DNA of 64,000 bases, from assembly GCA_902777015.1 (NCBI GenBank), contig CACYSA010000006.1:33502-97501 (forward strand), read 5' to 3'. Shown piece after piece: positions 15,174-60,140 of the stretch. Within the stretch, counting starts at the first letter, position 1. The number at the start of each line of letters is the position of its first letter. The position numbers were made by a program, and so were the translations under genes. Below the pieces are notes generated by a model, which saw only the letters and a list, made by a program, of their open reading frames with translations, searched no databases and was not told where the DNA came from. The DNA is from an uncultured Erysipelotrichaceae bacterium. GTDB taxonomy: Bacteria; Bacillota_I; Bacilli_A; RFN20; CAG-826.

Positions 15174-15797
15174 CTAATTATTTTCTTTAGCTTTTCTTCT
15201 GGCTTCTTTTTGTTTTTGAAGTTCGATATTATTGTTATAGATTCTTAATAATCTTGGTAAATTATACTTCAGTATAAAAGCGGGTAAAACAATTAATATA
15301 GCGTTGACTACAGCGATTGGTAAAGCAATGGTTAACCAAATATTTGATTGTCCTAAATACATCTTCCAATCTAATAAAATGATTAAAAATGAAGTTGGAA
15401 CGCTCATCAAGTGGATAGCGATACCATATCTTGCTTCTAAAATGAAACGGGCAATATATTCGTTATCAAATGGGTTAACGACTTTGTTTTTATGAAAGGC
15501 AGTGAAACTGCCTAATTCAGGAATATAATCTTTCCATTTTTGGACACCTAAAAATGTATAGAACTTCAGTTCTTTTTCACTAGTTCTTGTAAACCAATAA
15601 TCTTTTTGAAACCATTTTTCTGGTAGCTTTCTAATGATTAAGGCCACTAAAGCGTCAATAAGTATCACGATGATTGTTAACGCTAATGTGAAGATAATAT
15701 AAAGCCACCACTTATCATGGTAAATAGGATTAAGGAAGATATTTAACGATGCTACCGAAATGACACCGATAGCAATAATAATGAGATATAAAACCAT
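15174..15797 (-). CDS. Small polytopic membrane protein, co-transcribed with the GT8-acyltransferase
   Basis: Start overlaps the upstream stop by 1 bp. Four or five TM helices. Confidence 0.4.
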   Translation of the reverse strand: MVLYLIIIAIGVISVASLNIFLNPIYHDKWWLYIIFTLALTIIVILIDALVALIIRKLPEKWFQKDYWFTRTSEKELKFYTFLGVQKWKDYIPELGSFTAFHKNKVVNPFDNEYIARFILEARYGIAIHLMSVPTSFLIILLDWKMYLGQSNIWLTIALPIAVVNAILIVLPAFILKYNLPRLLRIYNNNIELQKQKEARRKAKENN

Positions 15798-17617
15798 TAT
15801 TTAGCCTCGGTGAGATAGGTGAGTGGCTCACCATATACTTTTTCATAGACTTCTTTACAAAGTCTTTCATTTTCTTTTTTCATATTAGTGACATTTTCTT
15901 GTTGGCTTAATCTTTCTTCTGGATAGATAGCGGGTAAGAAATGCAATGTATATGCTTGAATAATAGAGCCATCTTTCGCTATTTTATCAGTATCTCTCAT
16001 CGTAATAAATGTTGGAATAACTGGAACATTATTACGCGCCGCAAAGATAAATGCGCCTTGTTTTAATGGCTTTGGTTTACGATAATTCCACCACATTGAT
16101 TGTTCTGGATAAATGAGGATGTAATTACCTTTATGAAGAATTGTATCAACAGCGTTTTGGAACGACCTTAAAACTGTTGGGTTAGTGGCAAGAGGTAAGG
16201 TATTACAGTTTCTTAGGAAATAACCAAAAATACCTGGCATTGTATAGTTACCTTCTCTAATCACTTTATATAGTTTCTTGCATCTAGCGTATTTTCTAAG
16301 CGCTAAATGGAGTGGAACACTATCAAATGGAGAAAAGTGGTTTGCGGTAATGACTGCCCCACCTTTGACTCTTTTAAGATTTTCAACACCTTCAAAGCCA
16401 TCGATGACAATCGCACCTTTTTTAATCATATGTTTAAAGAAACGATATGAATAATAATTGGCCCACATTGTTTTGACTTTGCTAGTCCATTTTTTTCTTA
16501 AATAGTCAACATCTCCTGGCATTAAGTGACGATATGGGGGATCATTTTCCACATCGACATCGAATTTACCGAGTCTTTCAAGTTCGATAATTTTATTAAC
16601 AACTTCTCTTCTTTCAGGAGAGAGCTTAGACATAATCTCATCAACTTTTTTGATCTTTTGATCCATTGTTTCGTATTTTTCTTTAACGGGTTCTCCATTA
16701 ATCTTTTGATGATATTCTTCCGCTTTAGAAGCTTCTAAATTACAGAATGCTTTTACTCCATCAACGCCTTGAAGAATCTTTTCGGTGACTTCTTGAGGAA
16801 TAGCCTCTCTATTTTTCAAGATTTGGTTTTTAACACCAGCGAGTTCAGCGTATTTGAAGAATTCTTCTTCATACATGATGTTTTCTAAGTTCCAAGGTTT
16901 GAACATTAAGTTATAGTGAATTAAAGATGGCTCATTCACTCTTTCACCAAGTGGCATGACATTCCATTTTTTATCTAATAATAATGTCTTATCTTTGCAA
17001 AGATAATTTAATAAATCTTGGTCTTGAGCAACTTTAAATGTCACTCTCTTTAATAGATTAACAACGCGTTTTTCTAAGCCGAATTCTCTGAGCTTTTTAA
17101 AATTCATTAATAAAACACCAGCGTTAAAGTATTTGGTGTGATCCATTTCAATGACTTTATGAACATAATTAATGAATTCATCATAAAGTTGGACGGATGC
17201 ATCAGGCACCGCACCAACGAGGTTATCACCTAAATCGGTGAAATATAATTTAGCAATATCATCACGGACAACGATATCGCTATCTAAATATAATCCTTTA
17301 TTAAATAAAGGGAATAAATCTGGTAAGAATAAACGGTAATAAGTTGTGATTGTGTAATAATCACGGACATCTAACTTGACTGATAATGAATGCACTTTAA
17401 GTGTGACATCATAAAACCAAATAAAGATGTTTTTGTTGTTTTGAAATTTGCGAAGGGCTTTCTTGCTTTTTGAAGATAAGCCATCGTGAAGAATGGTCAA
17501 GTGATATTTATACTTCTTAGAAGCATGTCTAACGATACTAGCAATAGTCACTGACAGATAAGGGATGTAGTTATCGTCCACAGTGAAGAAGAGACGAACT
17601 ACTTTCTGTTGGGCCAT
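15797..17617 (-). CDS. Bifunctional GT8 glycosyltransferase / PlsC-like lysophospholipid acyltransferase fusion
   Basis: The N-terminus carries GT8 hallmarks (FTVDDNYIPYLSVTIASI, DSD, NAGVLLMN). The C-terminus has the PlsC H(x)4D motif (ANHFSPFD) and FP/PEG-like acyltransferase blocks. Confidence 0.6.
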   Translation of the reverse strand: MAQQKVVRLFFTVDDNYIPYLSVTIASIVRHASKKYKYHLTILHDGLSSKSKKALRKFQNNKNIFIWFYDVTLKVHSLSVKLDVRDYYTITTYYRLFLPDLFPLFNKGLYLDSDIVVRDDIAKLYFTDLGDNLVGAVPDASVQLYDEFINYVHKVIEMDHTKYFNAGVLLMNFKKLREFGLEKRVVNLLKRVTFKVAQDQDLLNYLCKDKTLLLDKKWNVMPLGERVNEPSLIHYNLMFKPWNLENIMYEEEFFKYAELAGVKNQILKNREAIPQEVTEKILQGVDGVKAFCNLEASKAEEYHQKINGEPVKEKYETMDQKIKKVDEIMSKLSPERREVVNKIIELERLGKFDVDVENDPPYRHLMPGDVDYLRKKWTSKVKTMWANYYSYRFFKHMIKKGAIVIDGFEGVENLKRVKGGAVITANHFSPFDSVPLHLALRKYARCKKLYKVIREGNYTMPGIFGYFLRNCNTLPLATNPTVLRSFQNAVDTILHKGNYILIYPEQSMWWNYRKPKPLKQGAFIFAARNNVPVIPTFITMRDTDKIAKDGSIIQAYTLHFLPAIYPEERLSQQENVTNMKKENERLCKEVYEKVYGEPLTYLTEAK

Positions 17618-23955: not shown

Positions 23956-25599
23956 TTAATTTTTGTTTTTGCGTTTTCTTTCACGCTTATTTGAATACAT
24001 TAAGTGATCAGCGTGGACCAAAACATCTTCAGCGTAAATATCGATTTCTTTATCATATGCCGCTATGCCAAGAGAAACTGCAACTTTTTCATAGCCTTCT
24101 TTAGCAAAGCTAGACATCTCTTTACACTGTTTATAGAACTGATCTTTTAGTTCTTCTCTATTTTTATAATCTTCATCAAACAAGATGGCGACAAATTCAT
24201 CTCCACCAATACGATAGATATCACTATGAGAGAACACTTTACTCATTAATACACTAGCCTTTTTAAGATAGACATTACCTTTATCATGTCCGTATTTATC
24301 GTTAATCTTCTTTAAACCATCACAGTCAAACATCGCAATAGCAAATTCCACTTCTTCTTTGTTATTGATACGTCTTTGTATTTCTTCGATAGCGCGATCA
24401 AATGAGCTCTTGTTTTTAACTGAAGTTAAAGCGTCAGAATAGGCAAGATTATTTAAGTTTCCGATGTAGGAACCTAAATTATCTATTAATTGTGACATTG
24501 TTTTTGTTAATACACCAATCTCATCATTACGGTCGTTCTTAAGTTCAACTTGGTAATTGCCTTTATTGATTTCTTCTGCGGCGAGAGTTAACTCTTTTAA
24601 TGGTCTAGTAAATCTTCTAGTAAGAATGATTGTTAAAACCGCAATTACAATGATAATCGCTAAAGCGGCAATAATAATTTGCCAGACAATTAACTGCCAA
24701 GTATTATTTATTTCCGCTGTTGGAACACAGACAACGATGCTCATATTATTAGAAAGATCAAGCCAATGTGCGTGTTTATTGACACCTTGGAAAGTATAAG
24801 CTAGGTGTTGTTTGCCACTAGAAAAGTCTCTATAGAATCCATCAGGGATGCTTGGTCTTTCTTCTGCTGGCATGCTCAAGATATCGATGTATGGGTGATA
24901 AATGATACTTCCATCTGAATCTTCGATGATATATGCAAACCCTGATTTTAAAACTTTGATGTCGTCAATTTGTTCACCTAATGTGTGATAGCTAATTTCA
25001 ATTCCCACTACGCCGATAAAAGTGCTATGACGGTAAACAGGGATATTATAAGAAATAACAATCGCATCTAGACTGTCAGTAATGTATGGTGAAAGCCAAA
25101 CTGGTTGGCCAGTACTTTTAGGGGTATAGAACCAAACGCATTCATTGTGATCATCACTAATGTCAGTGACTTCGTGTTCTACGAAGCCTTTACCATCAAG
25201 GTTAGTGAACCAGAAACCTTTTTCGTTTGTGGTTTCACTAATCGAAGGATCGATACGATAGTAATAAGTTAAGACACCATTCGTGTTTTCGCTCGCCTCA
25301 CCGAAGAATAATTTTGCGTCTTCCATGTGCTTAGAAAAACCAGTGTTAAAATTGCTATCATCAATTTCATCAAGCTTTCTATCGATGAGTGTTGAAACAG
25401 TGTTAACTGATTGTTCAACACTCTTTAAATAATAGTTAATATTATTCTTACCAGTTTCACAAAGTAACGCTAATGATTGTTCGACACTTCGATGACCAAA
25501 ATTTGCGACATAGACAGAACTAATAAAAGCAGTAACAAAAATCGCAATAATAATTGAGATAATATTTAACAATGTTATCTTTGTTCTAATGGAATGCAT
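23956..25599 (-). CDS. Sensor diguanylate cyclase (extracytoplasmic sensor, HAMP, GGDEF)
   Basis: N-terminal TM helix, about 270-aa extracellular domain, second TM, then GGDEF domain with RIGGDEF. Confidence 0.75.
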   Translation of the reverse strand: MHSIRTKITLLNIISIIIAIFVTAFISSVYVANFGHRSVEQSLALLCETGKNNINYYLKSVEQSVNTVSTLIDRKLDEIDDSNFNTGFSKHMEDAKLFFGEASENTNGVLTYYYRIDPSISETTNEKGFWFTNLDGKGFVEHEVTDISDDHNECVWFYTPKSTGQPVWLSPYITDSLDAIVISYNIPVYRHSTFIGVVGIEISYHTLGEQIDDIKVLKSGFAYIIEDSDGSIIYHPYIDILSMPAEERPSIPDGFYRDFSSGKQHLAYTFQGVNKHAHWLDLSNNMSIVVCVPTAEINNTWQLIVWQIIIAALAIIIVIAVLTIILTRRFTRPLKELTLAAEEINKGNYQVELKNDRNDEIGVLTKTMSQLIDNLGSYIGNLNNLAYSDALTSVKNKSSFDRAIEEIQRRINNKEEVEFAIAMFDCDGLKKINDKYGHDKGNVYLKKASVLMSKVFSHSDIYRIGGDEFVAILFDEDYKNREELKDQFYKQCKEMSSFAKEGYEKVAVSLGIAAYDKEIDIYAEDVLVHADHLMYSNKRERKRKNKN

Positions 25600-27211: not shown

Positions 27212-28417
27212 TTAGAAGTCTTCCAAGACACATTCGACAAATAAAGAAGCGAGAAGAGGATCGAACTGGCTACCACTACCTTCTTTAATTATTTCAATGG
27301 CTTTCTCTTTTGAGTAAGCTTTCTTGTAAACACGATCAGAAATTAAAGCGTCGTAGACATCCGCTAAAGCCATTATTCTAGCTTCTAAAGGTATTTCCTC
27401 ACCCTTTAATCTATCAGGATAGCCAGTGCCGTCCCATCTTTCATGATGATGTCTAGCAATATTATATGCCACATCAGCGTAATCTTTATTTTCAAGACTA
27501 TAAATTGTTTTCTTAACTATGTTAGCGCCATAGATTGAATGGTTTTTAATGATTTCATATTCATCATTTGTTAATCTTGCCGGCTTATTTAAAACGATGT
27601 CTGGTATTTTGATTTTGCCGATATCGTGTAGAGGGGCTGCTAAAACGACATTGCGGAAATAGTCATCACTGATACGAGAAAACTTATCAAGCTTTTTCAT
27701 CTTACCGATTAAGCGATAAACATAGTCTCCGGAACGAACAATATGCCCACCTGTGTTTTCATCTCTTTCTTCGACGACTGTCGCTAAAGCCGTAATGACT
27801 CCACGTTGAATAAGTTCTACTTTAACACTAGCGTTAATTTCTCTAATATTTCTCACGCAAATAAAACCATATAAGACCGCACCCATGAGTGTGAATGTTC
27901 CAATGTTCATCACGTCTAATCTGAATGCAGAAGGAGCTTTATAAAAATAAGAAACAAGAAGATACGAGACACAAATTGCTAGCATAAAGAAATACATTCT
28001 TAATGGTCGATCGTCAATGGTTAAAGGTAAAAGTGAGACGAATACTACAACACTGGTAGCGGGTATTTCAAAATTGCTTGTTTGGACGCTTAGGATAATA
28101 GCGTATGAACATAGTAAGAGCATTTGTGCATAGCACAATATCATGTTAGGAATAATAACGTCTTCTTTAAATATCTTAATTATGGCAAAAACAAAAATAA
28201 GCGAACTGCCAATAAATAAGATGAGATACGGAAGCCAAGTATCGCCTTTAGTAATAATTGTGTACAAAAAGAACAAGAAGCCCATTACTGAGGCAATAGT
28301 AGATGTAATGCGTAATATCCTTCTATTTCTTTTCCAAACTAAATGCTGAATATTGTGAAATTCGTCATTACTAACACCACATGATAAAACAAAATTCTTG
28401 ATTTTAGAGTTTGCCAT
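27212..28417 (-). CDS. Membrane-anchored HD-GYP phosphodiesterase
   Basis: N-terminal polytopic domain, then HD-GYP with HHERWDGTGYP. Confidence 0.75.
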   Translation of the reverse strand: MANSKIKNFVLSCGVSNDEFHNIQHLVWKRNRRILRITSTIASVMGFLFFLYTIITKGDTWLPYLILFIGSSLIFVFAIIKIFKEDVIIPNMILCYAQMLLLCSYAIILSVQTSNFEIPATSVVVFVSLLPLTIDDRPLRMYFFMLAICVSYLLVSYFYKAPSAFRLDVMNIGTFTLMGAVLYGFICVRNIREINASVKVELIQRGVITALATVVEERDENTGGHIVRSGDYVYRLIGKMKKLDKFSRISDDYFRNVVLAAPLHDIGKIKIPDIVLNKPARLTNDEYEIIKNHSIYGANIVKKTIYSLENKDYADVAYNIARHHHERWDGTGYPDRLKGEEIPLEARIMALADVYDALISDRVYKKAYSKEKAIEIIKEGSGSQFDPLLASLFVECVLEDF

Positions 28418-31637: not shown

Positions 31638-32780
31638 TTAGCTTGAATGTCTTCTATCGTGACCTGATTTTAAGTAGAAATCAGCTTTATCTTTATACAT
31701 TAATTTTTCTGCTTCTTTCATCGCTTCATCAAATGTTATCGGATTATTTTCTTTATCAATGAAATAATAACCAATTGCCGCGGAATAAGTTGATTCTCTT
31801 AATTTTTCTTTGATTTGATAAACAGTATGAGCGAGTATTTCTTGACGACCGTTGAACATCAAGATGAGGAATTCATCACCACTTATACGATAAACACACA
31901 TGCTTGTTTCATCAATGCAGTTTTCAAAAATACTAGCGATTTCAATAAGTGCGTTATCACCCACACCATGACCATAATGGTCATTTAAGAATTTTAATTC
32001 GTTCATGTCGATTTGAACAACGCCATTAATCAAAGATCTATAACGGGAAATATCTTCATAATATGTTCTTCTATCGTAAAGATGTGTTAATGGGTCTCTA
32101 GACGTATTAACGGAAACAATAAAGATGTAGTTAGTCATCGCACATATGGCACTGACGATATTTAATAAATCGTTTCTATTAACAAGCATTTCTACGATAA
32201 CAGTCACACTGATAATTGCTACACAAAGAATAATAACGACACCATCACGACGATGTTTGCCATGGAACCTTAACGCTCCAACATAGATAAGAACACCTAA
32301 ATAGAATGCCGAGATGATATGTGAAACGAAATTCAATGGGGATCCTCTTATAAAAGATGCTGTTCCATCAGCGTTCATTTGATAATAGAAAATGATTTTT
32401 GAAATACCAGGAACACCAAAGAATAATGGGAGTATATACACTACCGCATTAGCCATAAGAGGTATCAAACATATTCTATAGAATAATTTGCTTCTTTTTT
32501 GATCCATATTGGCTAATAAGATAAAAACAAATAAAAGAATTGGTCTAGTGATATAGCCTAACGAAGTAAATATCGTACCAAGATAAATGTTACCAATCAC
32601 TTGGGAATATTTTTCAATTTCCACGACGATAGATAAGAATAAGACAATGATAATAAAAGAGATGAAAAGTAAACTTTCCTTTTTTCTCACTCTGATATTG
32701 CGTAAAGAAATGAAAAGTATCACTACCGCAACAGCGAATAAAGGAATGTTATTTGTTAGATATTTGACGAATTCATTCAT
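31638..32780 (-). CDS. Membrane sensor with GGDEF-type domain (degenerate SGDEF)
   Basis: Five or six TM helices followed by a GGDEF domain reading RISGDEF. Confidence 0.65.
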   Translation of the reverse strand: MNEFVKYLTNNIPLFAVAVVILFISLRNIRVRKKESLLFISFIIIVLFLSIVVEIEKYSQVIGNIYLGTIFTSLGYITRPILLFVFILLANMDQKRSKLFYRICLIPLMANAVVYILPLFFGVPGISKIIFYYQMNADGTASFIRGSPLNFVSHIISAFYLGVLIYVGALRFHGKHRRDGVVIILCVAIISVTVIVEMLVNRNDLLNIVSAICAMTNYIFIVSVNTSRDPLTHLYDRRTYYEDISRYRSLINGVVQIDMNELKFLNDHYGHGVGDNALIEIASIFENCIDETSMCVYRISGDEFLILMFNGRQEILAHTVYQIKEKLRESTYSAAIGYYFIDKENNPITFDEAMKEAEKLMYKDKADFYLKSGHDRRHSS

Positions 32781-36319: not shown

Positions 36320-38248
36320 GTGTTCGAAGGGTTTATGAAAGTTCTTGTAGTAGCAGATGTATTAGGAGAAGAGAATAACGGCACCACTATCGCGTGTATG
36401 AATTTAGTAAGATATATGTCGTCTCAAGGCGATGATGTCAAAATCTTATGTGCGGATCGCGATAAAAAAGGTAACCATAATTATTTTGTTGTACCAGAAC
36501 TAAATTTAGGTTACATCATCAATTACTTTGTTCATAAAAACAATGTTGTATTGGCTAAACCAACTAAGAAAATAATACGAAAAGCATTAGATGGTGTTGA
36601 TGTTGTTCACATTATGATGCCTTTCGCATTGGGTAGAGCAGCATTAAAAGAAGCAAGAAAAAGAGGCATTCCAGTTACTGCTGGGTTCCACTGCCAAGCC
36701 GAGAATTTTACATCTCACCTTGGATTAATGAACGTCCCACTAGCAAATAATCTCACATATAAGAATTTCTATAATCATTTTTATAAATACGTGGACGCTA
36801 TTCACTATCCAACTGATTTTATTAGAGAATATTTTGAACGTGTCATAAAAAGAAAAACAAATTCATATGTCATCTCTAATGGCGTGAATCATCAATATAA
36901 GAAATATAAATTGGAGAGAAAAGGTAAACTAGCCAATCACTTTAATATCTTGTTTATTGGTAGATATTCAAAAGAAAAAACACACCCGTTGCTTATAAAA
37001 GCGGTTTCTTTATCAAAGCACAAGGATGATATTCAACTTATTTTTGCTGGTCAAGGTCCGTATGCAAACAGCATGAAAAAACTTTCAAAAGAATTAGGGA
37101 TTATTCCACCGATCATGAAGTTTTATTCAAGACAAGATTTAGTGAAAGTTATCAATTCATGTGACTTATATGTCCATCCAGCAGAAATTGAAATTGAAGC
37201 TATCTCCTGTTTAGAAGCTATTACATGTGGATTAGTACCAGTAATATCTGATTCAGAGAGAAGTGCGACTAATAAATTTGCTTTGAGTGAAAAGAATCTC
37301 TTCAAATACGATTCTCCAGAAGATTTAGCGAATAAAATTGATTACTGGATTGAACATCCTGAAGAAAAAGAAGAATGTTCTAAACAATATCTCGGTTATA
37401 CAAAACAGTTCGAACAAAAATACTGTATGGAAAAGACGAGAAATATGATTCTCTCTTATACAAAAAAAGATTGTTATACAACTCAAGAGAAAAGATATTA
37501 CCAAGATGAAATAAACGATGACTTCGCAAATAACGGTATTGTCGCAAAACATAATAAAGTTGGATATAAATATATCCATAAGAATATTTTCTTTAGATTT
37601 TTCTCTACTTTATTAAGAACAATTGCCAGACCATTAATCTGGTTGATGAACAAGATTGTTTATAAGCAAAAGATAGTTAATAAAAAGATATTAAAGAAAT
37701 ATAAGAAGAGTGGTTACTTCATATATGCTAATCACACTACTTCTATGGGTGATGCTTATACTCCAAATATCTTATCGAGAAAGAATTACATCCTAGTAGG
37801 TGAAGAAGCCACAAGCATACCATTTGTTAGAACGATAGTTTCAATGTTAGGGGCACTGCCAATCCCATATCACAGTGAAAATATCAAACCATTCTTAGAT
37901 TCAGTTCAATATTATATAAAAGATAAGAAAGCCTCTATTACCATCTATCCAGAAGCACATATCTGGCCAACATATACAAAAATAAGAAACTTCAAACATG
38001 CATCATTTAGATATCCAGTTGACCTAAATGTTCCTTGCTTCTCTATCACTAATACATATAGACCAGGAAAGAATCCAAAGAAGCCAAAACTCGTTTCAAT
38101 CATCGATGGTCCATTCTATCCAAACCCATCTCTTAATCGAGCGGATGCGATTAAAGATTTAAGAGACCAAATATATGAAAATATGGTAAAAAGGGCAGCA
38201 GAAGTCCCACAAATTGAACAAATTCGATATATTAAAGTCGAAAAATAA
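36320..38248 (+). CDS. Bifunctional GT4 glycosyltransferase / PlsC-like acyltransferase fusion
   Basis: N-terminal GT4 domain (E-x7-E: EIEAISCLEA; FIGRYSKEK). C-terminal acyltransferase H(x)4D (ANHTTSMGD). Confidence 0.6.
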   Translation: MFEGFMKVLVVADVLGEENNGTTIACMNLVRYMSSQGDDVKILCADRDKKGNHNYFVVPELNLGYIINYFVHKNNVVLAKPTKKIIRKALDGVDVVHIMMPFALGRAALKEARKRGIPVTAGFHCQAENFTSHLGLMNVPLANNLTYKNFYNHFYKYVDAIHYPTDFIREYFERVIKRKTNSYVISNGVNHQYKKYKLERKGKLANHFNILFIGRYSKEKTHPLLIKAVSLSKHKDDIQLIFAGQGPYANSMKKLSKELGIIPPIMKFYSRQDLVKVINSCDLYVHPAEIEIEAISCLEAITCGLVPVISDSERSATNKFALSEKNLFKYDSPEDLANKIDYWIEHPEEKEECSKQYLGYTKQFEQKYCMEKTRNMILSYTKKDCYTTQEKRYYQDEINDDFANNGIVAKHNKVGYKYIHKNIFFRFFSTLLRTIARPLIWLMNKIVYKQKIVNKKILKKYKKSGYFIYANHTTSMGDAYTPNILSRKNYILVGEEATSIPFVRTIVSMLGALPIPYHSENIKPFLDSVQYYIKDKKASITIYPEAHIWPTYTKIRNFKHASFRYPVDLNVPCFSITNTYRPGKNPKKPKLVSIIDGPFYPNPSLNRADAIKDLRDQIYENMVKRAAEVPQIEQIRYIKVEK

Positions 38249-40763: not shown

Positions 40764-40922
40764 CTAAATCATAGCTTTAACACTAGTGACAGCCGCTTTG
40801 GCGACTTCGCTTGAAACTGTATTTGTTAAGCTAGTAAAGACTGCTGATAATCCCGCTGCGACGATACCAAAAATCATAATTACTAAGATAATACCAAGCA
40901 ATTGTCCTTTAATCTCAGACAT
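40764..40922 (-). CDS. Pilin-like small hydrophobic protein (Flp/type IV-like?) at the end of the pilus operon; not in ORF track
   Basis: RBS AAAGGAGA then ATG. Reads MSEIKG/QLLGIILVIMIFGIVAAGLSAVF..., 52 aa, with a short polar leader ending in Gly. A rho-independent terminator follows directly (about 40707-40760). Confidence 0.4.
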   Translation of the reverse strand: MSEIKGQLLGIILVIMIFGIVAAGLSAVFTSLTNTVSSEVAKAAVTSVKAMI

Positions 40923-40937
40923 AAATACTTCTCCTTT

Positions 40938-41279
40938 CTATCCATAAAATCCTACGACTGTCATTCGCGAAATACTGATTATCATTTCCCCCTTGGAAAT
41001 AATCATTGGTTGATAAGTCGTAGAAATTGAATAAATTATTTCTTCACCAAAAGTTGGTGATAGATTTTCATCACAGTTAAATGTCACGTTATACATGGTT
41101 TCGATACGATTTTTAAAATTGTCATCAATAATTCCTGTTCGAGATATTAAATAGGAAATATTGCTCGATTTAGCGTCGAGGGAACTAAAGACACTTTGAA
41201 TGGAAATGAGATCCGCGCCGAAAAGGAAATACATCGCCACGAAAATCATTGATAACAAAAGACCGATTTTATATGACAT
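40938..41279 (-). CDS. TadE-like / pseudopilin-like protein
   Basis: N-terminal hydrophobic helix, small soluble domain. Lies within the pilus operon. Confidence 0.35.
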   Translation of the reverse strand: MSYKIGLLLSMIFVAMYFLFGADLISIQSVFSSLDAKSSNISYLISRTGIIDDNFKNRIETMYNVTFNCDENLSPTFGEEIIYSISTTYQPMIISKGEMIISISRMTVVGFYG

Positions 41280-41967
41280 TAATTAAATCCCCCAATAAAG
41301 AAAGAATGGAAATAGTTAATGTCACAGTTATTAAACCCGCTCCTGCGAGAGGGAAGGTTGACATATTGGCTAAAGATCTTTCTTTTTGTTCAATTAATTC
41401 CTTATTACGATTTTTAGCTAATTCGTCATAGATGACATTGAACTGTGTTAATTGTTCAAAGCTTTCACCCTGCTCCACCATTTGATAGATGGAGAGCATT
41501 AAACTATGACTAGCTAAATGCTTGAAATTATTAGCAAAATTAATAAATGGTTGAACAGTTTTATCTTTATCTATTTCTTTAAGAAATGTTTCGATTTTAT
41601 CTTTCATCCATGAAGAACAAAAAGGTATGAGTAGATTGAATGATTGATAAACATTATTTTTGTTTTGAAGATATATTTCAAAATAAGAGATGATAGCGAT
41701 AAGCTCATCTTCTCTCGCTTTAAGTATTAAATTCTTCTTATCTTTATAACGTGATAATAATAGATAATCGATTGCCATTAACGCTATAGCGGCGACAATG
41801 ACATAAATAAAATAATCAAAGACAAAATAAAGAATTGCTATACCGCCTAAAGAAGCGATATTTATGAGCACTATTTTTAATATTTCCTTTTTATAAGAAA
41901 GACCAACAAATTCGATGGTATCTTTAAAACTATTTTTCATCGTCTTTCCAACCCTCCAATGTGACAT
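41269..41967 (-). CDS. TadC-like pilus assembly membrane protein (T2SS F-type)
   Basis: About 232 aa, three TM helices. Paired with a similar upstream protein and directly downstream of a CpaF-type ATPase. Confidence 0.45.
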   Translation of the reverse strand: MSHWRVGKTMKNSFKDTIEFVGLSYKKEILKIVLINIASLGGIAILYFVFDYFIYVIVAAIALMAIDYLLLSRYKDKKNLILKAREDELIAIISYFEIYLQNKNNVYQSFNLLIPFCSSWMKDKIETFLKEIDKDKTVQPFINFANNFKHLASHSLMLSIYQMVEQGESFEQLTQFNVIYDELAKNRNKELIEQKERSLANMSTFPLAGAGLITVTLTISILSLLGDLINVI

Positions 41968-42637
41968 TAGAAATGCGCTTTACCAAAATGTAGATTGAAA
42001 GAAGCACAAATAAGAAGATGGCCACTACCGACACCTGGTAAAAAGGTGTTTGAATAACTTTGTTATAAAACTGTGATAAGGCAAATCTTAATGACGCCAA
42101 AATAATTAGCGTAATACTCCACAAGATGGTAAATTCAATCACTCTTGATTTATGCATTGATTCGCAAGATAAGAGATATTCTTCTTTTAAACGTAGTTTA
42201 TTAATCAGACGTTGACTCATATTTAAAATGTCACCGCCTTGTTCATTCCATAAAGTAACCATATCAACGAAAAGGTAATATAAATCAAATTTAAAATATT
42301 TACTTAAGTAAGATAGCTGTTCTTCTTCATCCATTTCTTTAATGGAATCCATCACTTCTTTTACTTTACTATCGCTGATGTTATAAGCGCTTTCTCTAGC
42401 GTACGCTAAAGAACCTTTAATACTTAAAGAAACTAGATAAGTATTTACAAAGCGATAACACTGATGGTAGCGGCGGGTTTTGTTTAGATATTTGTTTTTT
42501 TGCCTTCTAGCGATGAAAACGAAAAAACCTATGGACGTTAGGAAAATTACAAGACTACTAATAACATTTTCACTCGCAATATAATTCAAACCAGCGAAGG
42601 CGAGCGAAACAAAAAATCCAATTAACAAAAAATTCAT
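41930..42637 (-). CDS. TadB-like pilus assembly membrane protein
   Basis: About 235 aa, three TM helices. Start overlaps the ATPase stop. Confidence 0.45.
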   Translation of the reverse strand: MNFLLIGFFVSLAFAGLNYIASENVISSLVIFLTSIGFFVFIARRQKNKYLNKTRRYHQCYRFVNTYLVSLSIKGSLAYARESAYNISDSKVKEVMDSIKEMDEEEQLSYLSKYFKFDLYYLFVDMVTLWNEQGGDILNMSQRLINKLRLKEEYLLSCESMHKSRVIEFTILWSITLIILASLRFALSQFYNKVIQTPFYQVSVVAIFLFVLLSIYILVKRISNVTLEGWKDDEK

Positions 42638-43692
42638 TTATTTCCTCCTAGAAAAGTTCTTTTGAATAAGTTACTAGCGTGAGAAGTGTTTAACATTTTT
42701 AATGGCTCGGTTCCTAATAACTTAAATCTTTTGTTTTCCCCGTCACTACCATATATTTCTTCCATTGTCTTACCATTAAGGTAACCAACAGATGAAATGT
42801 ATCTTGATACCACACCATCTTCGCTATATTTACGTGTTAAATAAATATAGAAACGAAGATGATATGAAACATCTTGATAGACATCTTGATAATCCATTTT
42901 TTGTTCGTTCATCATCACCATTCTCACCATGCGATAAGGCATACTTTCGATGTCAAAAGCATGTAATGTCGTAATGATTGGATGACCAGTTAATGAAGAA
43001 TTAAGAACATCAATAGCTTCTTTACCACGACTTTCAGCAACTATAAGCCAATCTGGATTACTTCTTAAAGCGGTTTTCACTAACCGCTCAGTCGAAGCAT
43101 TTTCTCTATTTTCATCGACTTGCCAAATATTTAAATCAAGATGATTTTCAACTTGCAATTGATCTAGTTCTAATACGTTATCGATAACTATCGCTCTTGT
43201 GTTTTCTTTCATTCTTGTAATGAGATATTTTTGTAATTCGGTTTTGCCACTTCCCGTTAATCCTCCAAGCACGATTGAAACATTAGAGTCAATTAGTACA
43301 TCTAACAAATCACTTAAGGCTGGAGGAAAATATCTTTCGTCTTCTTGGATGCGTAAACGCGTTGACGCAATACGTAATGAAAAGCATATACATTCATTGT
43401 TTTTCTTACGGCAAACACTTTGATGCAACGCTGTTAGACGATATTTACCAAATGAGACATCTAATTCTGGATTTTGATAAGAGAATTGCTTTTCAGATAA
43501 ATTAGCAATTTGACGAATGAAATCTCTTACCAAAAGTGGTTCCACTTCAACGTTTCTTTTTAAACGACCAAATTTATTATCAATATAAAAGATATATTCC
43601 CCGTTATAAGAAATATCGGTGATAGTATCCTCTTTTAATAAGTCGCTTAAAAAGGATGTTTCTAAATAACCTACTAACTTCTTAACGTCCAT
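42634..43692 (-). CDS. Tad/CpaF-type (VirB11 superfamily) secretion ATPase
   Basis: Walker A GGLTGSGKT. Downstream block DWLIVAESRGKEAIDVLNSSLTGHPIITTLHA matches the CpaF/TadA E.RG.EA...TGH...TT.HA signature. Confidence 0.7.
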   Translation of the reverse strand: MDVKKLVGYLETSFLSDLLKEDTITDISYNGEYIFYIDNKFGRLKRNVEVEPLLVRDFIRQIANLSEKQFSYQNPELDVSFGKYRLTALHQSVCRKKNNECICFSLRIASTRLRIQEDERYFPPALSDLLDVLIDSNVSIVLGGLTGSGKTELQKYLITRMKENTRAIVIDNVLELDQLQVENHLDLNIWQVDENRENASTERLVKTALRSNPDWLIVAESRGKEAIDVLNSSLTGHPIITTLHAFDIESMPYRMVRMVMMNEQKMDYQDVYQDVSYHLRFYIYLTRKYSEDGVVSRYISSVGYLNGKTMEEIYGSDGENKRFKLLGTEPLKMLNTSHASNLFKRTFLGGNK

Positions 43693-44078
43693 TAGTTACT
43701 CCTTATCTGATAGTACATCGTCTTTTCATAGTGATAATTAAGAATCAAAGAAGCTTCCACTTTTACTTCAACCGCATGACAAGTATCGCTAAGACAGATG
43801 GAATGATTAAAAGGATTGTAATAATAAAAGTCTAACGAATAGTCTTTTGTATATTTTTTCATCGAGAAATCGAAATATGATTGGATACGATTCTCTAAGG
43901 CTTGTTTATCAAAAGAAGGCCCCACGTTCTCGTTTATGTTCAGCATATTGATCGAAGTTTCATATAAAGAAATAGGCATCGATAAAACTAGATTATTAAC
44001 TCCATTTATTTGATAAGACATCATAAAGAAATTGAAAGAGATGACTGCGATAAAAAGAGCAATGAATATGATCACCAT
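43692..44078 (-). CDS. Membrane-anchored pseudopilin-like protein
   Basis: N-terminal TM helix (MVIIFIALFIAVISF) with a small extracellular domain. Translationally coupled. Confidence 0.3.
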   Translation of the reverse strand: MVIIFIALFIAVISFNFFMMSYQINGVNNLVLSMPISLYETSINMLNINENVGPSFDKQALENRIQSYFDFSMKKYTKDYSLDFYYYNPFNHSICLSDTCHAVEVKVEASLILNYHYEKTMYYQIRSN

Positions 44079-45178
44079 TATTTAATTCCTCCTTCGATGT
44101 AATAATCACTATCACCACATAAGCCCACTAAAGAGCGGTCAGCAACATACCTAATCGGAAAAGAAGCATTTAACTTACTTTTACCTAATCCAACTACATC
44201 TAAATATAGAAGTTTATTATTGAAGATTCTTTTACCATTTACTGGCAAATAAAAATATGTTGAAGGCGCATAACCAGGGTGAGAAACATTAGATAACTGT
44301 AATGTCCTTTTATTAACGTAAAATGAGTTTTTATATTTAAGAGTTAGGATGTCATTAATCTTTGTAGTGCCTAGAGGAATATTGATATTTACCCCATCAT
44401 GATTTAAATAGGGAAATAGATTTTCACGGTCTTCAAAACGCAGAGATATGGAATCGTAACTAAAATCAAATAGCGAACTATATTTAAAATTAATATTCGT
44501 AAGGTTGAGACGATAATAATAATCGATATCTAAATAATCTGTTAATGAAGTAAAATCATATTTTTCTTTAATACCTTTAATGGCTTTCCCATCAGCGTAA
44601 AAGCCGATATCTCTAGTTTCGTAAACGCTACTTTTTAATTCTTGCGTTGTCGGTTTGTCACTAGATATTGGATAAAAAGTCGTACCATAATTCGCCACTA
44701 TGAGATGTTTAGTTTTATCAACAACTTCAAATTTAAAAGTCATGCCGTTATTAGTAAGACATTCTTTTATTGGCATAGTGAATGTCGCCATTTCTAAACT
44801 ATCTTCGATATAATCTTTAGTCTCATTAACATAAGCGTATATAACGCTTCCTGTAGGGCCTATTATTCTTAATCTTTCATTTACTAGACGGCTAGGACCA
44901 AAAATACGATAAGTAAAATTTACTTCAAAATTAGGATCTCCCACTTTAAAAGGTCCATACAATGGGCATTCGATATAATCACTATTATCATCAGGATTAG
45001 AACTACTAGATGTTCTTGAATACTTAAATGAACCCGCGGATATATTTGGTGGAGGAGCAAAATTAGAAGAACGAGTAATTATAGAAAAGTCTATCTTGCC
45101 CGCAGCGGTTACCTCGCTAGTAATCCCGCTTGTGGACGAAACAATTATTGCGCTTGATAAAAGCAATATTTTAAGCAT
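44078..45178 (-). CDS. Secreted protein of the pilus operon (possible tip or adhesin component)
   Basis: Signal peptide, 366 aa, Tyr/Asn-rich. Confidence 0.35.
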   Translation of the reverse strand: MLKILLLSSAIIVSSTSGITSEVTAAGKIDFSIITRSSNFAPPPNISAGSFKYSRTSSSSNPDDNSDYIECPLYGPFKVGDPNFEVNFTYRIFGPSRLVNERLRIIGPTGSVIYAYVNETKDYIEDSLEMATFTMPIKECLTNNGMTFKFEVVDKTKHLIVANYGTTFYPISSDKPTTQELKSSVYETRDIGFYADGKAIKGIKEKYDFTSLTDYLDIDYYYRLNLTNINFKYSSLFDFSYDSISLRFEDRENLFPYLNHDGVNINIPLGTTKINDILTLKYKNSFYVNKRTLQLSNVSHPGYAPSTYFYLPVNGKRIFNNKLLYLDVVGLGKSKLNASFPIRYVADRSLVGLCGDSDYYIEGGIK

Positions 45179-45494
45179 GATAAATACCCTCCAAGAACTT
45201 CAGCATCGTTAGTTTCTTTAAACGATAAAAATTAGCTTTGGAGTACAAACCAACCCACCAGTATTGATAGTTTTGATAGAAGAATTCGTTATTGATTAAG
45301 TTTTGCTGTTTTTCATTTAATAAAGAGTAAGCTTTTTCCACTTTTATTAAATAAGCTTGGTATGGTAAATCATATTTCTTGATAATATCGTTACTATTTA
45401 AAACTAGTAAAGCTTTCCTGGCAAAGAAAAACTTATCGGCAACTTCTTCAGTCATTTTGCTTAATTCTTTGAAGCTTTTTTCGATCAATACCAT
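45171..45494 (-). CDS. Small cytoplasmic protein, first gene of the pilus operon
   Basis: 107 aa, no TM. Overlaps the next gene. Confidence 0.3.
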   Translation of the reverse strand: MVLIEKSFKELSKMTEEVADKFFFARKALLVLNSNDIIKKYDLPYQAYLIKVEKAYSLLNEKQQNLINNEFFYQNYQYWWVGLYSKANFYRLKKLTMLKFLEGIYHA

Positions 45495-45671
45495 GTTTTT
45501 GCCTCCTATATGTTTAGTAGGTTGGTTTTTTGCTTTTTGTCCGAAATTTTTTAAATATTTTTTCTAAGCCTTCCTATTAATTCTTTGAATTAACTTTTTT
45601 TGAAAAAATTACAAATAAAAAAAGAAATGCGCTTTTTTTGAAAAGTGATATATTATTTGTAATAAGTTTTT

Positions 45672-51503: not shown

Positions 51504-52895
51504 TTACATAGTTTTTTGTTCCTCGATGGCAAATTCATCAACATGATTTCTAATCGAATCTGGATATGATTGATAGAGTTCAATAAAGGCATCAATAATC
51601 TTAGGATCCCACTGTTTACCTCGATATGTGAGTAACTCATTAAGAGCACTGCTATCTGGTAAAGCTTTACGATAACTACGATCACTTGTCATTGCGTCAA
51701 AAGAATCACAAACAGCGACAATTCTCGCTGCGAATGGAATCTCTTCGCCTTTAAGTTTATCTGGATAGCCATTACCATCATATCTTTCATGATGGCTTCT
51801 AGCGACTTCTTCAAATACTTTGTAATGTTTAATACCTTTAAGAATATTACTACCTAAAGATGGGTGAGATTTAATAACTTCAAATTCATCATCACTTAAT
51901 TTGCCTGGCTTTCTTAAAATGGTTTCTGAAATACCAATTTTACCAACGTCATGGATTAAACCCGCGAAATAGATCTTTTCACATTCGCCAGCGCTTAAGC
52001 CTAATTTCTCCGCTAAAGCTTTAGCGTATGCTGCCACTCTAAATGAGTGACCTTTTGTGTAATGGTCTTTAGTGTCAACCACTTCCGCTAAGGAAGATAA
52101 TGTTTCTAATGTTAATTCTTCATATGATTGCTTTTCATCATCAAGCTCTTTAGTACGGTTTTGAACTTGTATCTCCAAAGAGGCCTTAAGTTCGTTTAAT
52201 TCATATAACGTCTCCATTAATTTTGCATAATCAGGCGATTCAATGGAGAAGAAAATGATTAAAGCACCAATGGATGTAGCGAAGTCTGATAATAAAATAT
52301 TTGGAAAGAAATAAACTTGAATGATGTATGAAGCAAAGAATATCGCGTAGAATATCCCAGCGCATATTCTTTGTTTAATATTTGAATATTTATATCTCAC
52401 GAAGAAGAAGATAATTGATTCAACGACATATAAAAGTGAAACGGCATTAACAAATAAATAAATTGGGCCACGTGTATAAACACCATCAACAAATGTAAAG
52501 AAGATGCCGGTAAAGCCATTGACCACTAATAAAGCGCCATCAATGAAGAATAGACCTAAATTAATAATGGTAAATATCTTAAATAAACGGTTCTTTAGAT
52601 CTTTAAAATAAAGAATCGACAAGATGTAATAAAGGAACAACCCTGCAGTAGCATTACTAGCAGCGAAATAAATACCATTTAATGTGTAACTTATCCATAA
52701 CGGAAAATTAGCGGCATATTTATTTGTGAACACCGTTAAGATGTTCATCGCATACATCACTAATGTCGCCACTAAAAAGATTTTGAATCTTCTGTTCAAG
52801 AGGTTTGTTGACGAATAATTCAAAATTAATATGGTGACTAAAATCGCCCCGATTATAACAGCGGCGACACTGTACGATATGTTATATTCCATCAC
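51504..52895 (-). CDS. Membrane-anchored HD-GYP phosphodiesterase
   Basis: Polytopic N-terminus, coiled segment, HD-GYP with HHERYDGNGYP. Confidence 0.75.
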   Translation of the reverse strand: MMEYNISYSVAAVIIGAILVTILILNYSSTNLLNRRFKIFLVATLVMYAMNILTVFTNKYAANFPLWISYTLNGIYFAASNATAGLFLYYILSILYFKDLKNRLFKIFTIINLGLFFIDGALLVVNGFTGIFFTFVDGVYTRGPIYLFVNAVSLLYVVESIIFFFVRYKYSNIKQRICAGIFYAIFFASYIIQVYFFPNILLSDFATSIGALIIFFSIESPDYAKLMETLYELNELKASLEIQVQNRTKELDDEKQSYEELTLETLSSLAEVVDTKDHYTKGHSFRVAAYAKALAEKLGLSAGECEKIYFAGLIHDVGKIGISETILRKPGKLSDDEFEVIKSHPSLGSNILKGIKHYKVFEEVARSHHERYDGNGYPDKLKGEEIPFAARIVAVCDSFDAMTSDRSYRKALPDSSALNELLTYRGKQWDPKIIDAFIELYQSYPDSIRNHVDEFAIEEQKTM

Positions 52896-59102: not shown

Positions 59103-60140
59103 ATGACTGTTACTAACGCTAAACAATACCGTCGTAAAATGAAGATGGTTGGTAAAACATGCTACACCGCAAATATTGCTTATTTGTTAGTCCATGTTTT
59201 ATACCTTATATTCTTTATTATTTCTAAATACACCGCTTTAATCATCGTTGATGCAGCGATTATTGCGATTTATTTATTGTTCTTTTTGTTAATTAAAAAA
59301 GAAAAATATTACATCTATGCTTTGTGCTGTGGGAATCTATATTTTGCGTTTATTTCCGTTAGCACTATCATGCTCGGTTTTGGTACAGGCTTCCATTTAT
59401 ATTTAATTGGCTTATGCATTGTTTCTTTCTTTACGACATATTTCTCAAAAGTTAGAAACTTAAAAGGTTCAATTGTTTGGGTTGGTTTATCATTTGCCAT
59501 TTATTTAACTTTATATTTAGTCACTAGATTTAATGCTCCATATTATGTTGTTCCACAATGGCTAGAAATGACATTATTTATCATTCATGCAATTGCGGTA
59601 TTTGTCTTTGTGGCCGCCTATATGGTCGTATTTATTAGATACGCTACTAAGTTAGAAAATAGAATCATGAATGAATCTAGAACTGATGAATTAACACAAA
59701 TTAGTAATAGATATGGTTTATATGACTATTATGATTCTGATCTTGATAAATCAGATAGCTTATTAGCCTTATTTGATATCGATGATTTCAAAAACATCAA
59801 CGATTCATATGGTCACGTCTATGGCGATTATGTTTTAAAACGTGTTGCGGAAATCACCACTCAAACATTAAACGATGCATTTATTTGTCGCTTTGGTGGC
59901 GAAGAATTTGTTGTCGTTTTAAACGAGGATAAAGAAATCTCTTACTACAATAGATTAGAAGCATTAAGAAGAACAATCGAAAAAGAAACATTCGAATTTA
60001 ATAACACTAAGATTAATATCACCATCACTATCGGTGCAACTGAATACCAAGAAAATATGTCATTAGACAAATGGATTGAAGCGGCTGATAAGAAGATGTA
60101 TCACGGTAAGAATTCTGGTAAGAATCAAACCGTCTATTAA
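59103..60140 (+). CDS. Membrane-anchored diguanylate cyclase (GGEEF)
   Basis: Six TM helices, then GGDEF domain with RFGGEEF. Confidence 0.75.
   Translation: MTVTNAKQYRRKMKMVGKTCYTANIAYLLVHVLYLIFFIISKYTALIIVDAAIIAIYLLFFLLIKKEKYYIYALCCGNLYFAFISVSTIMLGFGTGFHLYLIGLCIVSFFTTYFSKVRNLKGSIVWVGLSFAIYLTLYLVTRFNAPYYVVPQWLEMTLFIIHAIAVFVFVAAYMVVFIRYATKLENRIMNESRTDELTQISNRYGLYDYYDSDLDKSDSLLALFDIDDFKNINDSYGHVYGDYVLKRVAEITTQTLNDAFICRFGGEEFVVVLNEDKEISYYNRLEALRRTIEKETFEFNNTKINITITIGATEYQENMSLDKWIEAADKKMYHGKNSGKNQTVY

Follow-up and report, generated by a model that had tools for sequence, protein, structure and literature searches.

A stretch of 64,000 nucleotides from an uncultured Erysipelotrichaceae bacterium (contig CACYSA010000006.1; hereafter the window) carries, on its minus strand between positions 45494 and 40764, eight co-directional open reading frames (ORFs) that we interpret with moderate confidence as a type IV filament machine, minimal in its parts and strongly diverged. 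Such a machine would belong to the Tad/archaeal (Epd-like) lineage and would operate in monoderm, possibly wall-less Bacilli of the gut and rumen. A type IV filament machine is the best reading because of the type of ATPase encoded, the presence of a pair of GspF-like platform proteins, and small proteins that resemble pilins and pseudopilins. The operon, each gene of which lies where an initial annotation had placed it, is composed as follows.

45171-45494, minus strand: g1, 107 amino acids (aa), cytoplasmic
44078-45178, minus strand: g2, 366 aa, with a Sec-type signal
43692-44078, minus strand: g3, 128 aa, with an N-terminal transmembrane (TM) segment
42634-43692, minus strand: g4, 352 aa, ATPase
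41930-42637, minus strand: g5, 235 aa, with four hydrophobic segments
41269-41967, minus strand: g6, 232 aa, with three hydrophobic segments
40938-41279, minus strand: g7, 113 aa
40764-40922, minus strand: g8, 52 aa
40726-40745, minus strand: intrinsic terminator-like hairpin (AACGGC-N8-GCCGTT) with a T-run behind it, 18 nucleotides 3′ of the g8 stop codon

Adjacent genes overlap by 1-38 nucleotides, the sole exception being g7 and g8, which are separated by a 15-nucleotide gap containing a GGAG ribosome-binding site that serves g8. The eight-gene operon with terminator proposed by the initial annotation is thus confirmed, as are a secreted 366-residue protein and a TM-anchored 128-residue protein, the former carrying the Sec-type signal of g2 and the latter the N-terminal TM segment of g3. 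The same arrangement recurs well beyond the window. A genome scan with the ATPase as query yielded 12 loci in rumen metagenome-assembled genomes (MAGs), a metagenome scan with the g5 alignment yielded 80 further loci from rumen, human gut, biogas, and sludge, and gene order within them was mapped by iterative hidden Markov model (HMM) searches. Essentially every locus of sufficient length retains the order g1-g8, down to 31% identity in g5 and 43% in the ATPase. A contig that is 99% identical over the ATPase gene belongs to a water-deer rumen MAG labelled 'Bacilli bacterium RGIG9223', and one relative bears the name 'Candidatus Onthovivens sp.', which speaks for a probable placement of the host in order RFN20 or a neighboring one. 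When the g5 profile was compared with 1.84 billion representative proteins, just 285 clusters were retrieved at E ≤ 1e-3, nearly all of them 215-260 residues long.

In terms of genomic setting, the operon is flanked on one side by the guanylate kinase gene gmk (divergently oriented), HflX, and two CNNM/CBS transporters, and on the other by the acyl carrier protein gene acpP and a tRNA. The G+C content is uniform at about 33%, and the base composition of the operon is the same as that of its surroundings. Since the upstream genes gmk, hflX, and the two CNNM genes are retained in many of the related loci, the cassette is taken to be chromosomal and vertically inherited, and this synteny, together with the gene order kept in about 90 loci, points to maintenance under selection. 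A decaying remnant of an integrated conjugative element, with no current function, would account for the homology to plasmid conjugation genes described below and for the absence of the remainder of a type IV secretion system (T4SS). Such a remnant is nevertheless highly improbable and effectively refuted by conservation: none of the eight ORFs is disrupted and their starts and stops overlap, their order persists in about 90 loci at 31-99% identity with invariant ATPase catalytic residues, the site between gmk and acpP is fixed, the base composition does not deviate, and a split ATPase occurs in one locus (L012) among about 87.

With respect to the presumed motor of the machine, g4 is, judged by its sequence, a hexameric-type secretion ATPase of the T2SSE superfamily, within the group that holds VirB11, TadA/CpaF, and archaeal GspE/FlaI. 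Pfam T2SSE matches it at 78.7 bits (cut-off 24.9; E = 4.4e-22), and its family shows no variation in the Walker A, Walker B/Glu, and His-box residues. The more specific NCBIfam models all remain under their cut-offs, with VirB11 (TIGR02788) scoring highest at 112 bits against a cut-off of 250 and over the C-terminal domain only, followed by the TadA family (TIGR03819, 99.9 bits against 373), TrbB (78 bits), FlaI (69 bits), and ComGA (NF041000, 62 bits against 300). The CpaF/TadA-type ATPase of the initial annotation is therefore retained as a member of the T2SSE family, and its membership in the TadA family is less certain. Against solved structures in the PDB, the g4 family profile scores best with the archaeal GspE of Archaeoglobus (2oap, 94.7 bits), followed by VirB11 (81.5 bits), FlaI (78.7 bits), and CpaF (70 bits); PilB/GspE structures reach 31-36 bits, and DotB, BfpD, and PilT also score far lower. 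It is because of this ranking that we place g4 in the archaeal/VirB11/Tad branch rather than in that of PilB, GspE, and ComGA, at about equal distance from the archaeal, VirB11, and CpaF types.

The two genes that follow appear to encode a split inner-membrane platform. Specifically, an AlphaFold2 model of g5 built from a 130-sequence alignment (mean predicted local distance difference test score, pLDDT, 96.2) adopts the PilC/GspF cytoplasmic fold; an earlier model from a shallow alignment (at least 59% identity) gave a pLDDT of 66 and was discarded. On the strength of this model, g5 is predicted to be an inner-membrane platform protein in which two N-terminal TM segments, a GspF/PilC-like helical bundle, and two C-terminal TM segments succeed one another. 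Three of the 130 g5 relatives touch Pfam T2SSF, weakly. The relationship between g5 and g6 is undetectable by BLASTP (E = 0.59) and emerges at the profile level, where hhalign aligns the two families over 145 columns covering the N-terminal TM segments and the cytoplasmic domain (76% probability, E = 2.3e-5). This comparison was run without natural g5-g6 fusions, the inclusion of which gave a spurious 98% match. By these profiles g6 is a second platform protein and a remote paralogue of g5, and its true start may be a second ATG at 41940. Two paralogous proteins with three TM segments each had been proposed here; two half-size, platform-like proteins are indeed present, with paralogy visible by profile only and with four segments in g5 and three in g6.

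One of the related loci bears on whether these two proteins work together. In locus L093, from which g1 is absent, g5 and g6 are fused in frame, and the locus still lies between gmk and acpP.

L093:3295-4494: g5-g6 fusion protein P0373, 399 aa, the fusion being present on two contigs

By its sequence, this fusion looks like a natural re-fusion of a split platform, and it suggests that g5 and g6 act together. In Tad and Epd systems, two single-domain platform genes beside the ATPase gene are a hallmark and are seen as products of gene fission (PMC6668835). The remote paralogy of g5 and g6 and their fusion in L093 therefore fit this pattern. The window likewise has two adjacent half-size platform genes next to the ATPase gene, as in Tad loci, although Pfam T2SSF recognizes neither g5 nor g6. 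Separately, a 350-residue protein on a 1.6-kb contig (P0319) is a g5 homologue with an N-terminal extension of about 140 residues, which might reflect a genuine fusion, a chimera that arose in assembly, or an error of gene calling.

At the operon's 3′ end, g8 begins with MSEIKG|QLLGIILV, that is, a 6-residue leader followed by Gln at position +1, a hydrophobic helix of about 25 residues, and a short variable tail. Among 67 homologues the N-terminus, MSE[IL]KG[QS]L[LF]G[ILVM][IL]L, is almost invariant, and the tail and total length (45-78 aa) vary; this is the classic pattern of a type IV pilin, and it bears out the earlier proposal of a 52-residue pilin-like ORF at this position. Epd and Gram-positive Flp pilins share the short leader ending in Gly, the Gln at +1, and the small size (PMC3875500). 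Accordingly sized for the Flp/Epd type, g8 is a candidate major pilin, for which cleavage and polymerization are predicted. In the human gut loci L086-88, g8 occurs in two tandem copies.

L086:8227-8616: tandem g8 copies
L087 and L088, 11725-12114: tandem g8 copies

The preceding gene, g7, encodes a protein that opens with MSYK[IL][GS] and a hydrophobic helix, and its family has the invariant residues D23, D35, G78, R105, and G110. Pfam TadF is matched weakly by 7 of 34 family members (best E = 0.005, below the curated threshold), and g7 is best described from its sequence as a pseudopilin-like (minor pilin) protein. The TadE-like protein of the initial annotation thus survives as pseudopilin-like, and Pfam gave at most a marginal match to the window g7 itself. 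Isolated matches to TadE (E = 0.0013) and Tad(E/G) (E = 0.0038), also below curated thresholds, occur among members of the g3, g8, and g1 families. As for g3, it is bitopic, with a single hydrophobic segment at residues 1-24 and no leader; it is conserved in 71 loci and has no family match in Pfam or NCBIfam.

How closely the operon resembles a Tad/Flp locus, as which it was first annotated, can be judged from what the two share. In monoderm Tad/Flp loci, as here, two single-domain platform genes come after an ATPase gene, with genes for pilin and pseudopilin behind them, the mature pilin has the size of Flp (about 46 residues), and neither a secretin nor a peptidase is encoded in the locus; the weak TadF, TadE, and Tad(E/G) matches among the small proteins may be a further likeness. 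The initial view that the layout departs from canonical flp-tad loci is not supported, since two platform genes, a 3′ pilin gene, and a locus without TadV or secretin are normal for monoderm Tad systems. Precedents are known in which the pilin gene is 3′, tadV lies elsewhere, and a secretin is lacking, and a tadV outside the locus is normal in Bifidobacterium. The real departures lie elsewhere, as read from the sequences: divergence is so extreme that six of the eight window proteins escape Pfam and NCBIfam, TadZ is missing, neither Glu5 nor Tyr6 (the Flp motif G/XXXXEY) occurs in the pilin, g1-g3 are extra, and the core is orthologous to a block of conjugation operons. In addition, CpaF structures score under archaeal GspE and VirB11, and the pseudopilin gene precedes the pilin gene. 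Among the four Pfam models that had been suggested as a check, T2SSE matches a window protein and T2SSF, TadE, and Flp_Fap do not; at E ≤ 1, Pfam and NCBIfam gave only marginal matches to the window g5, g6, g7, and g8, such as GspG for g8 (E = 0.065). Because of these departures we keep the cassette outside the Flp-Tad family, so that of the proposed Tad/Flp pilus locus the type IV filament module stands, and membership in the Flp-Tad family, whose Flp motif, TadZ, and family HMM scores are wanting, does not.

Epd-like pili of archaea, which depend on EppA, offer a second point of comparison. Shared features are the two half-size platform genes, the short pilins, and an ATPase whose best match among solved structures is the Archaeoglobus GspE 2oap, by a narrow margin (95 versus 79-82 bits). 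Epd signal peptides are 5-13 residues long and end in Gly, with Gln at +1 (PMC3875500), and g8 has both Gly-1 and Gln+1. In contrast, Epd pilins keep Glu5 and a DUF361 domain, neither of which is found in g8 (the DUF361 HMM gave no match), the cassette contains no FlaH/KaiC-like gene or EppA, and its host is bacterial. The Com pseudopilus differs in its components, as the ComGA cut-off is not reached by g4, the platform is split rather than of the two-domain ComGB type, and the pilin lacks the Glu5 of ComGC.

A different perspective on the operon comes from conjugative plasmids. When plasmids were searched by tblastn with the ATPase, Firmicutes plasmids came out on top, namely those of Bacillus badius and Paenibacillus larvae and the pLM80-like ones of Listeria. 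The matching genes, at 31-34% identity and with 85-89% of the query aligned, are annotated as 'CpaF/VirB11 family', and their neighborhoods hold the same block of small genes. In pLS20 this block corresponds to genes 36-41.

L097:9446-13334: pLS20 (NC_015148) genes 36-41, encoding proteins p36-p41 of 126, 402, 268, 243, 120, and 47 aa

Gene 37 is described in the pLS20 family as 'putative VirB11' and the other five genes of the block as 'Unknown' (Val-Calvo et al. 2021, PMC8557374); in RefSeq, gene 37 is annotated as tadA. With the cassette HMMs, the g4 family model scores 203 bits against pLS20 p37, 209 against the Listeria protein, and 243 against that of Paenibacillus. The g5 model scores 33.6 bits against p38, the g6 model 19 bits against p39 and 63 against a Paenibacillus plasmid protein (RefSeq 'FlaJ'), and the g7 model 20 bits against p40. 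As the E-values of these searches refer to tiny databases, the hhalign values are the safer figures, and these relate g5 to p38 (96.2%, E = 2e-9, 211 columns), g6 to p39 (95.9%, E = 6e-9), and g7 to p40 (90.1%, E = 1.6e-6). For each of g5, g6, and g7 the best plasmid match is the syntenic partner, and the g4 model likewise picked out the partner expected from gene order. Between g3 and p36 the HMM score is only 10 bits and hhalign found nothing, and between g8 and p41, which is without a KG|Q junction, neither HMM nor hhalign comparison gave significant similarity. A p40-like pseudopilin on the Paenibacillus larvae plasmid NZ_CP019656 (L095:3581-3937) starts with MSELKG, like the g8 leader.

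Taken together, these alignments identify g4-g7 as collinear homologues of pLS20 genes 37-40 at the sequence level, and g3 and g8 correspond by position to genes 36 and 41. Gene order and sizes agree (128, 352, 235, 232, 113, and 52 aa here), and the TM topologies published for genes 36 and 38-41 match those of g3 and g5-g8; for g3 and p36, and for g8 and p41, the match is one of size, position, and single-TM topology and not of significant sequence similarity. The plasmid block sits among genes for VirD4-like, VirB6-like (p028), VirB4, cell-wall hydrolase, and relaxase proteins. The cassette, in contrast, is chromosomal, vertically inherited at a fixed housekeeping site, and free of detected T4SS or relaxase genes; its ATPase is 50 residues shorter, and it adds g1 (activator-like) and g2 (secreted), which have no plasmid counterpart. 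We read it as the stand-alone counterpart of the module that elsewhere, as genes 36-41 of pLS20, is embedded in conjugation operons. Conversely, judged by homology to the cassette, pLS20 genes 36-41 look like a Tad-like module within a Gram-positive conjugation operon. Our literature search found no paper describing the cassette or calling pLS20 genes 38-41 Tad-like.

Several observations count against a filament, and must be set beside the evidence above. The nearest relatives of the ATPase and the platform sit in conjugation operons, so the native job of the module may be the transfer of DNA or protein, and no filament has been reported for pLS20 (PMC8557374, PMC11730352). There is no direct link of g6 to T2SSF, nor any direct sequence match to it in Pfam or the PDB. 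No Flp_Fap or other pilin HMM in Pfam or NCBIfam matches g8, position +5 is Ile, Val, or Leu in place of Glu5, and no Tyr6 occurs in any of the 67 homologues. Almost all bacterial type IV pilins have Glu5. A motif scan of the 64-kb window and a Pfam search of every multi-TM ORF in it revealed no prepilin peptidase, nor did one turn up in the cassette or flanks of the 92 related loci, and no second P-loop protein of TadZ/FlaH type is present in the cassette of any locus. No secretin was detected in the cassette, the scanned window ORFs, or the flanks of the 92 loci, which agrees with the initial annotation that prepilin peptidase, TadZ, and secretin are all lacking.

Much of this would be expected if the operon encoded a non-filament inner-membrane ATPase complex of Gram-positive conjugation, that is, a 'VirB11' energizing unit with membrane partners, whose chromosomal copy had been domesticated for another translocation task such as the export of g2 or the transfer of DNA or protein. 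The closest homologues of g4-g7 are indeed pLS20 37-40 and their kin, flanked by VirD4, VirB4, the VirB6-like p028, and a cell-wall hydrolase; VirB11 is the best-scoring NCBIfam model for g4; a peptidase was not found in the vicinity; Glu5 is missing from the pilin; and the literature on Gram-positive conjugation describes no pilus (PMC8557374, PMC11730352), the pLS20-family paper stating that no pilus homologues are encoded (PMC8557374). Like VirB/D4 systems, the operon has an ATPase of the VirB11 supergroup and about VirB11 size. We nonetheless judge this explanation unlikely. The predicted platform fold is GspF/PilC-like and thus a component of type IV filaments rather than of T4SSs, which have no GspF-like platform, and true VirB11 systems are without such proteins. 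The pilin pattern of a conserved N-terminus and variable tail in g7 and g8, with its Lys-Gly|Gln junction, also speaks for a filament, and export of a Sec-signal protein in a monoderm needs no pseudopilus piston. Moreover, about 90 loci keep the cassette at a fixed housekeeping site with no accompanying VirB4, VirD4, or relaxase. Specifically, the flanks of the 92 loci and the scanned window ORFs yielded no VirD4, VirB4, VirB6-like p028, hydrolase, or relaxase, and VirB2-B10 were likewise not found; no T4SS or relaxase protein appeared among the 40 other window ORFs scanned with Pfam, six ORFs of at least 150 aa lying outside that scan. A conjugative element in the window was considered and rejected, as the context consists of housekeeping genes. 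The initial annotation had held that an ATPase grouping with conjugative VirB11 proteins, next to proteins matching a conjugation system, would speak against a pilus. Half of this picture did materialize, in that the ATPase is nearest to the 'VirB11' of conjugative plasmids and g5-g7 match pLS20 38-40, yet those plasmid genes are themselves listed as 'Unknown' and are Tad-like in architecture.

Even within the type IV filament reading, the task of the machine could differ, and one alternative is a competence pseudopilus for DNA uptake that replaces or supplements ComG in a reduced genome. Tad pili are reportedly needed for transformation in Micrococcus luteus, the plasmid relatives of the module are linked to DNA transfer, and the pilin is very short and pseudopilin-like. 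Several classes of type IV filament are known to serve DNA uptake (PMC6668835). No comEA, comEC, or dprA was found in the cassette, the scanned window ORFs, or the conserved flanks, however; the ComGA, ComGB, and ComGC signatures are not matched (ComGA scoring 62 bits against 300, and Glu5 missing); and a fast-evolving secreted protein of 366 residues better suits an adhesin or another surface-interaction role. A primary role in DNA uptake is thus rather unlikely. For the filament machine that we favor, adhesion or cell-cell contact is by analogy the most likely function, with DNA uptake or transfer as an alternative to be taken seriously. Adhesion or cell contact is our first choice because of the fast-evolving secreted partner, the analogy with the pLS20 adhesin gene tie, and the report that related orders are without sortases (PMC10868615). 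Peptidoglycan, too, is often missing from these orders (PMC10868615).

The secreted partner, g2, is the fastest-evolving gene of the cassette (15-39% identity across its family) and always lies directly upstream of g3. Its C-terminus carries a conserved motif, LIGxCxxSxYCVxGG, and no match was found in Pfam, NCBIfam, or PDB sequences, even for 25 family members or their profile. From its position, which recalls that of tie upstream of gene 36 in pLS20, g2 is a candidate adhesin or envelope accessory protein. In L086-88 it is replaced by a different secreted protein of 343 aa, and g1 was not detected there. Since g1 is also absent from L093, it is placed outside the core.

With regard to regulation, g1 is probably a small transcriptional activator of the operon, to judge from its family matches. 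It scores 58.9 bits against the NCBIfam model NF045770 (MG284/MPN403 family, C-terminal domain; cut-off 37.3, E = 3.5e-16), and of 23 family members, 15 have a match to PHROG 248, which is labelled 'transcriptional activator' (best E = 4.7e-8). A C-terminal motif, INNEFF..Y..WW...YS..TFYR.KK.AM..FL, is conserved, and a comparison of the g1 profile with PDB sequences returned nothing useful. The MG284/MPN403 family is named after uncharacterized proteins of Mycoplasma genitalium and M. pneumoniae, on which our literature search found no work; the g1 relatives that match phage PHROG 248 offer a hint at the role of these Mycoplasma proteins. A candidate operator or promoter element, so regarded for its sequence and placement, lies upstream of g1.

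45577-45593, no strand assigned: perfect palindrome TTAATTC-N3-GAATTAA between the divergent genes gmk and g1, about 85-100 bp upstream of where g1 starts

This palindrome occurs a single time in the whole window. In 18 related loci it is found once per locus at the identical relative position and nowhere else within them, and more distant loci have variants with N4 spacing or degenerate half-sites. Closer to the gene, at 45500-45530 and just before the g1 start codon, there is a conserved element, CCTA(T)-N6-9-(A)TAGGAGG, which includes the Shine-Dalgarno sequence and could form a small hairpin or serve as a second protein-binding site. An Rfam scan for a riboswitch or other RNA element matched only the downstream tRNA.

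In the mechanism that we infer, in which the assembly of a filament, the cleavage of the pilin, the parts played by g1, g2, and g3, and the biological role are all predictions, a g4 hexamer would dock on a heterodimeric inner-membrane platform of g5 and g6, two half-size GspF/PilC-like proteins comparable to TadB and TadC. Synthesized as a prepilin that carries the 6-residue leader MSEIKG, the pilin g8, 46 residues long without it, would be pulled out of the membrane by the action of g4 and added to a thin helical filament. Minor pilins, namely g7 and perhaps g3, would prime assembly or cap the filament, and the secreted g2 would act as a candidate adhesin or envelope accessory. Expression would be controlled by g1 as a dedicated transcriptional activator at the promoter region marked by the conserved palindrome. 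If the system uses a prepilin peptidase, that enzyme would be encoded elsewhere in the genome.

Other genes of the window include a dense set for cyclic di-GMP signaling, considering the small genomes of these Bacilli: three membrane-bound GGDEF diguanylate cyclases and two membrane HD-GYP-type (HD_5) proteins are encoded within 64 kb. Cyclic di-GMP commonly controls pili and adhesion.

GGDEF and HD_5 genes:
23956-25599, minus strand
31638-32780, minus strand
59103-60140, plus strand
27212-28417, minus strand
51504-52895, minus strand

Also present are two large glycosyltransferase (GT4 or GT8) fusions with a C-terminal acyltransferase domain (36320-38248, plus strand, and 15797-17617, minus strand) and a CrtO-like acyltransferase (15174-15797), which may serve the synthesis of a glycolipid or membrane-anchored polymer, as in wall-less relatives. 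Two adjacent CotH-kinase-domain proteins (4564-6588 and 6588-8381, both on the plus strand) are encoded in an organism that is probably non-sporulating.

More broadly, the cassette could be the free-living form of an unrecognized class of bacterial type IV filament, situated between the archaeal Epd-like and Tad types and built from a pilin without Glu5. We put this forward tentatively, as a possibility that is open to considerable doubt. If it were true, genes 36-41 of the pLS20-family, Listeria, and Paenibacillus plasmids would specify a conjugative pilus or pseudopilus that resembles Tad pili, contradicting the pilus-free view of Gram-positive conjugation. It would also mean that a lineage related to the Mollicutes, which have been used as a pilus-free negative control, assembles type IV filaments, possibly in the absence of a wall and without a peptidase encoded in the locus. 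In evolutionary terms, the combination of Gln+1 without Glu5, a platform that is split but occasionally fused, and the position of the ATPase provides data points for the evolution of the archaeal/Tad branch.

For the proteins themselves, the analysis proposes roles for accessory components that are nameless, without Pfam domains, or 'hypothetical' in public databases. A type IV filament would provide a testable account of how plasmids of the pLS20 family form mating pairs in liquid, and with the cassette, in which the machine stands alone, it can be examined apart from the rest of a T4SS. For the organisms that carry it, the finding would extend type IV filaments to uncultured gut and rumen Bacilli near the Mycoplasmatales, for which the filament could be a main adhesion device.

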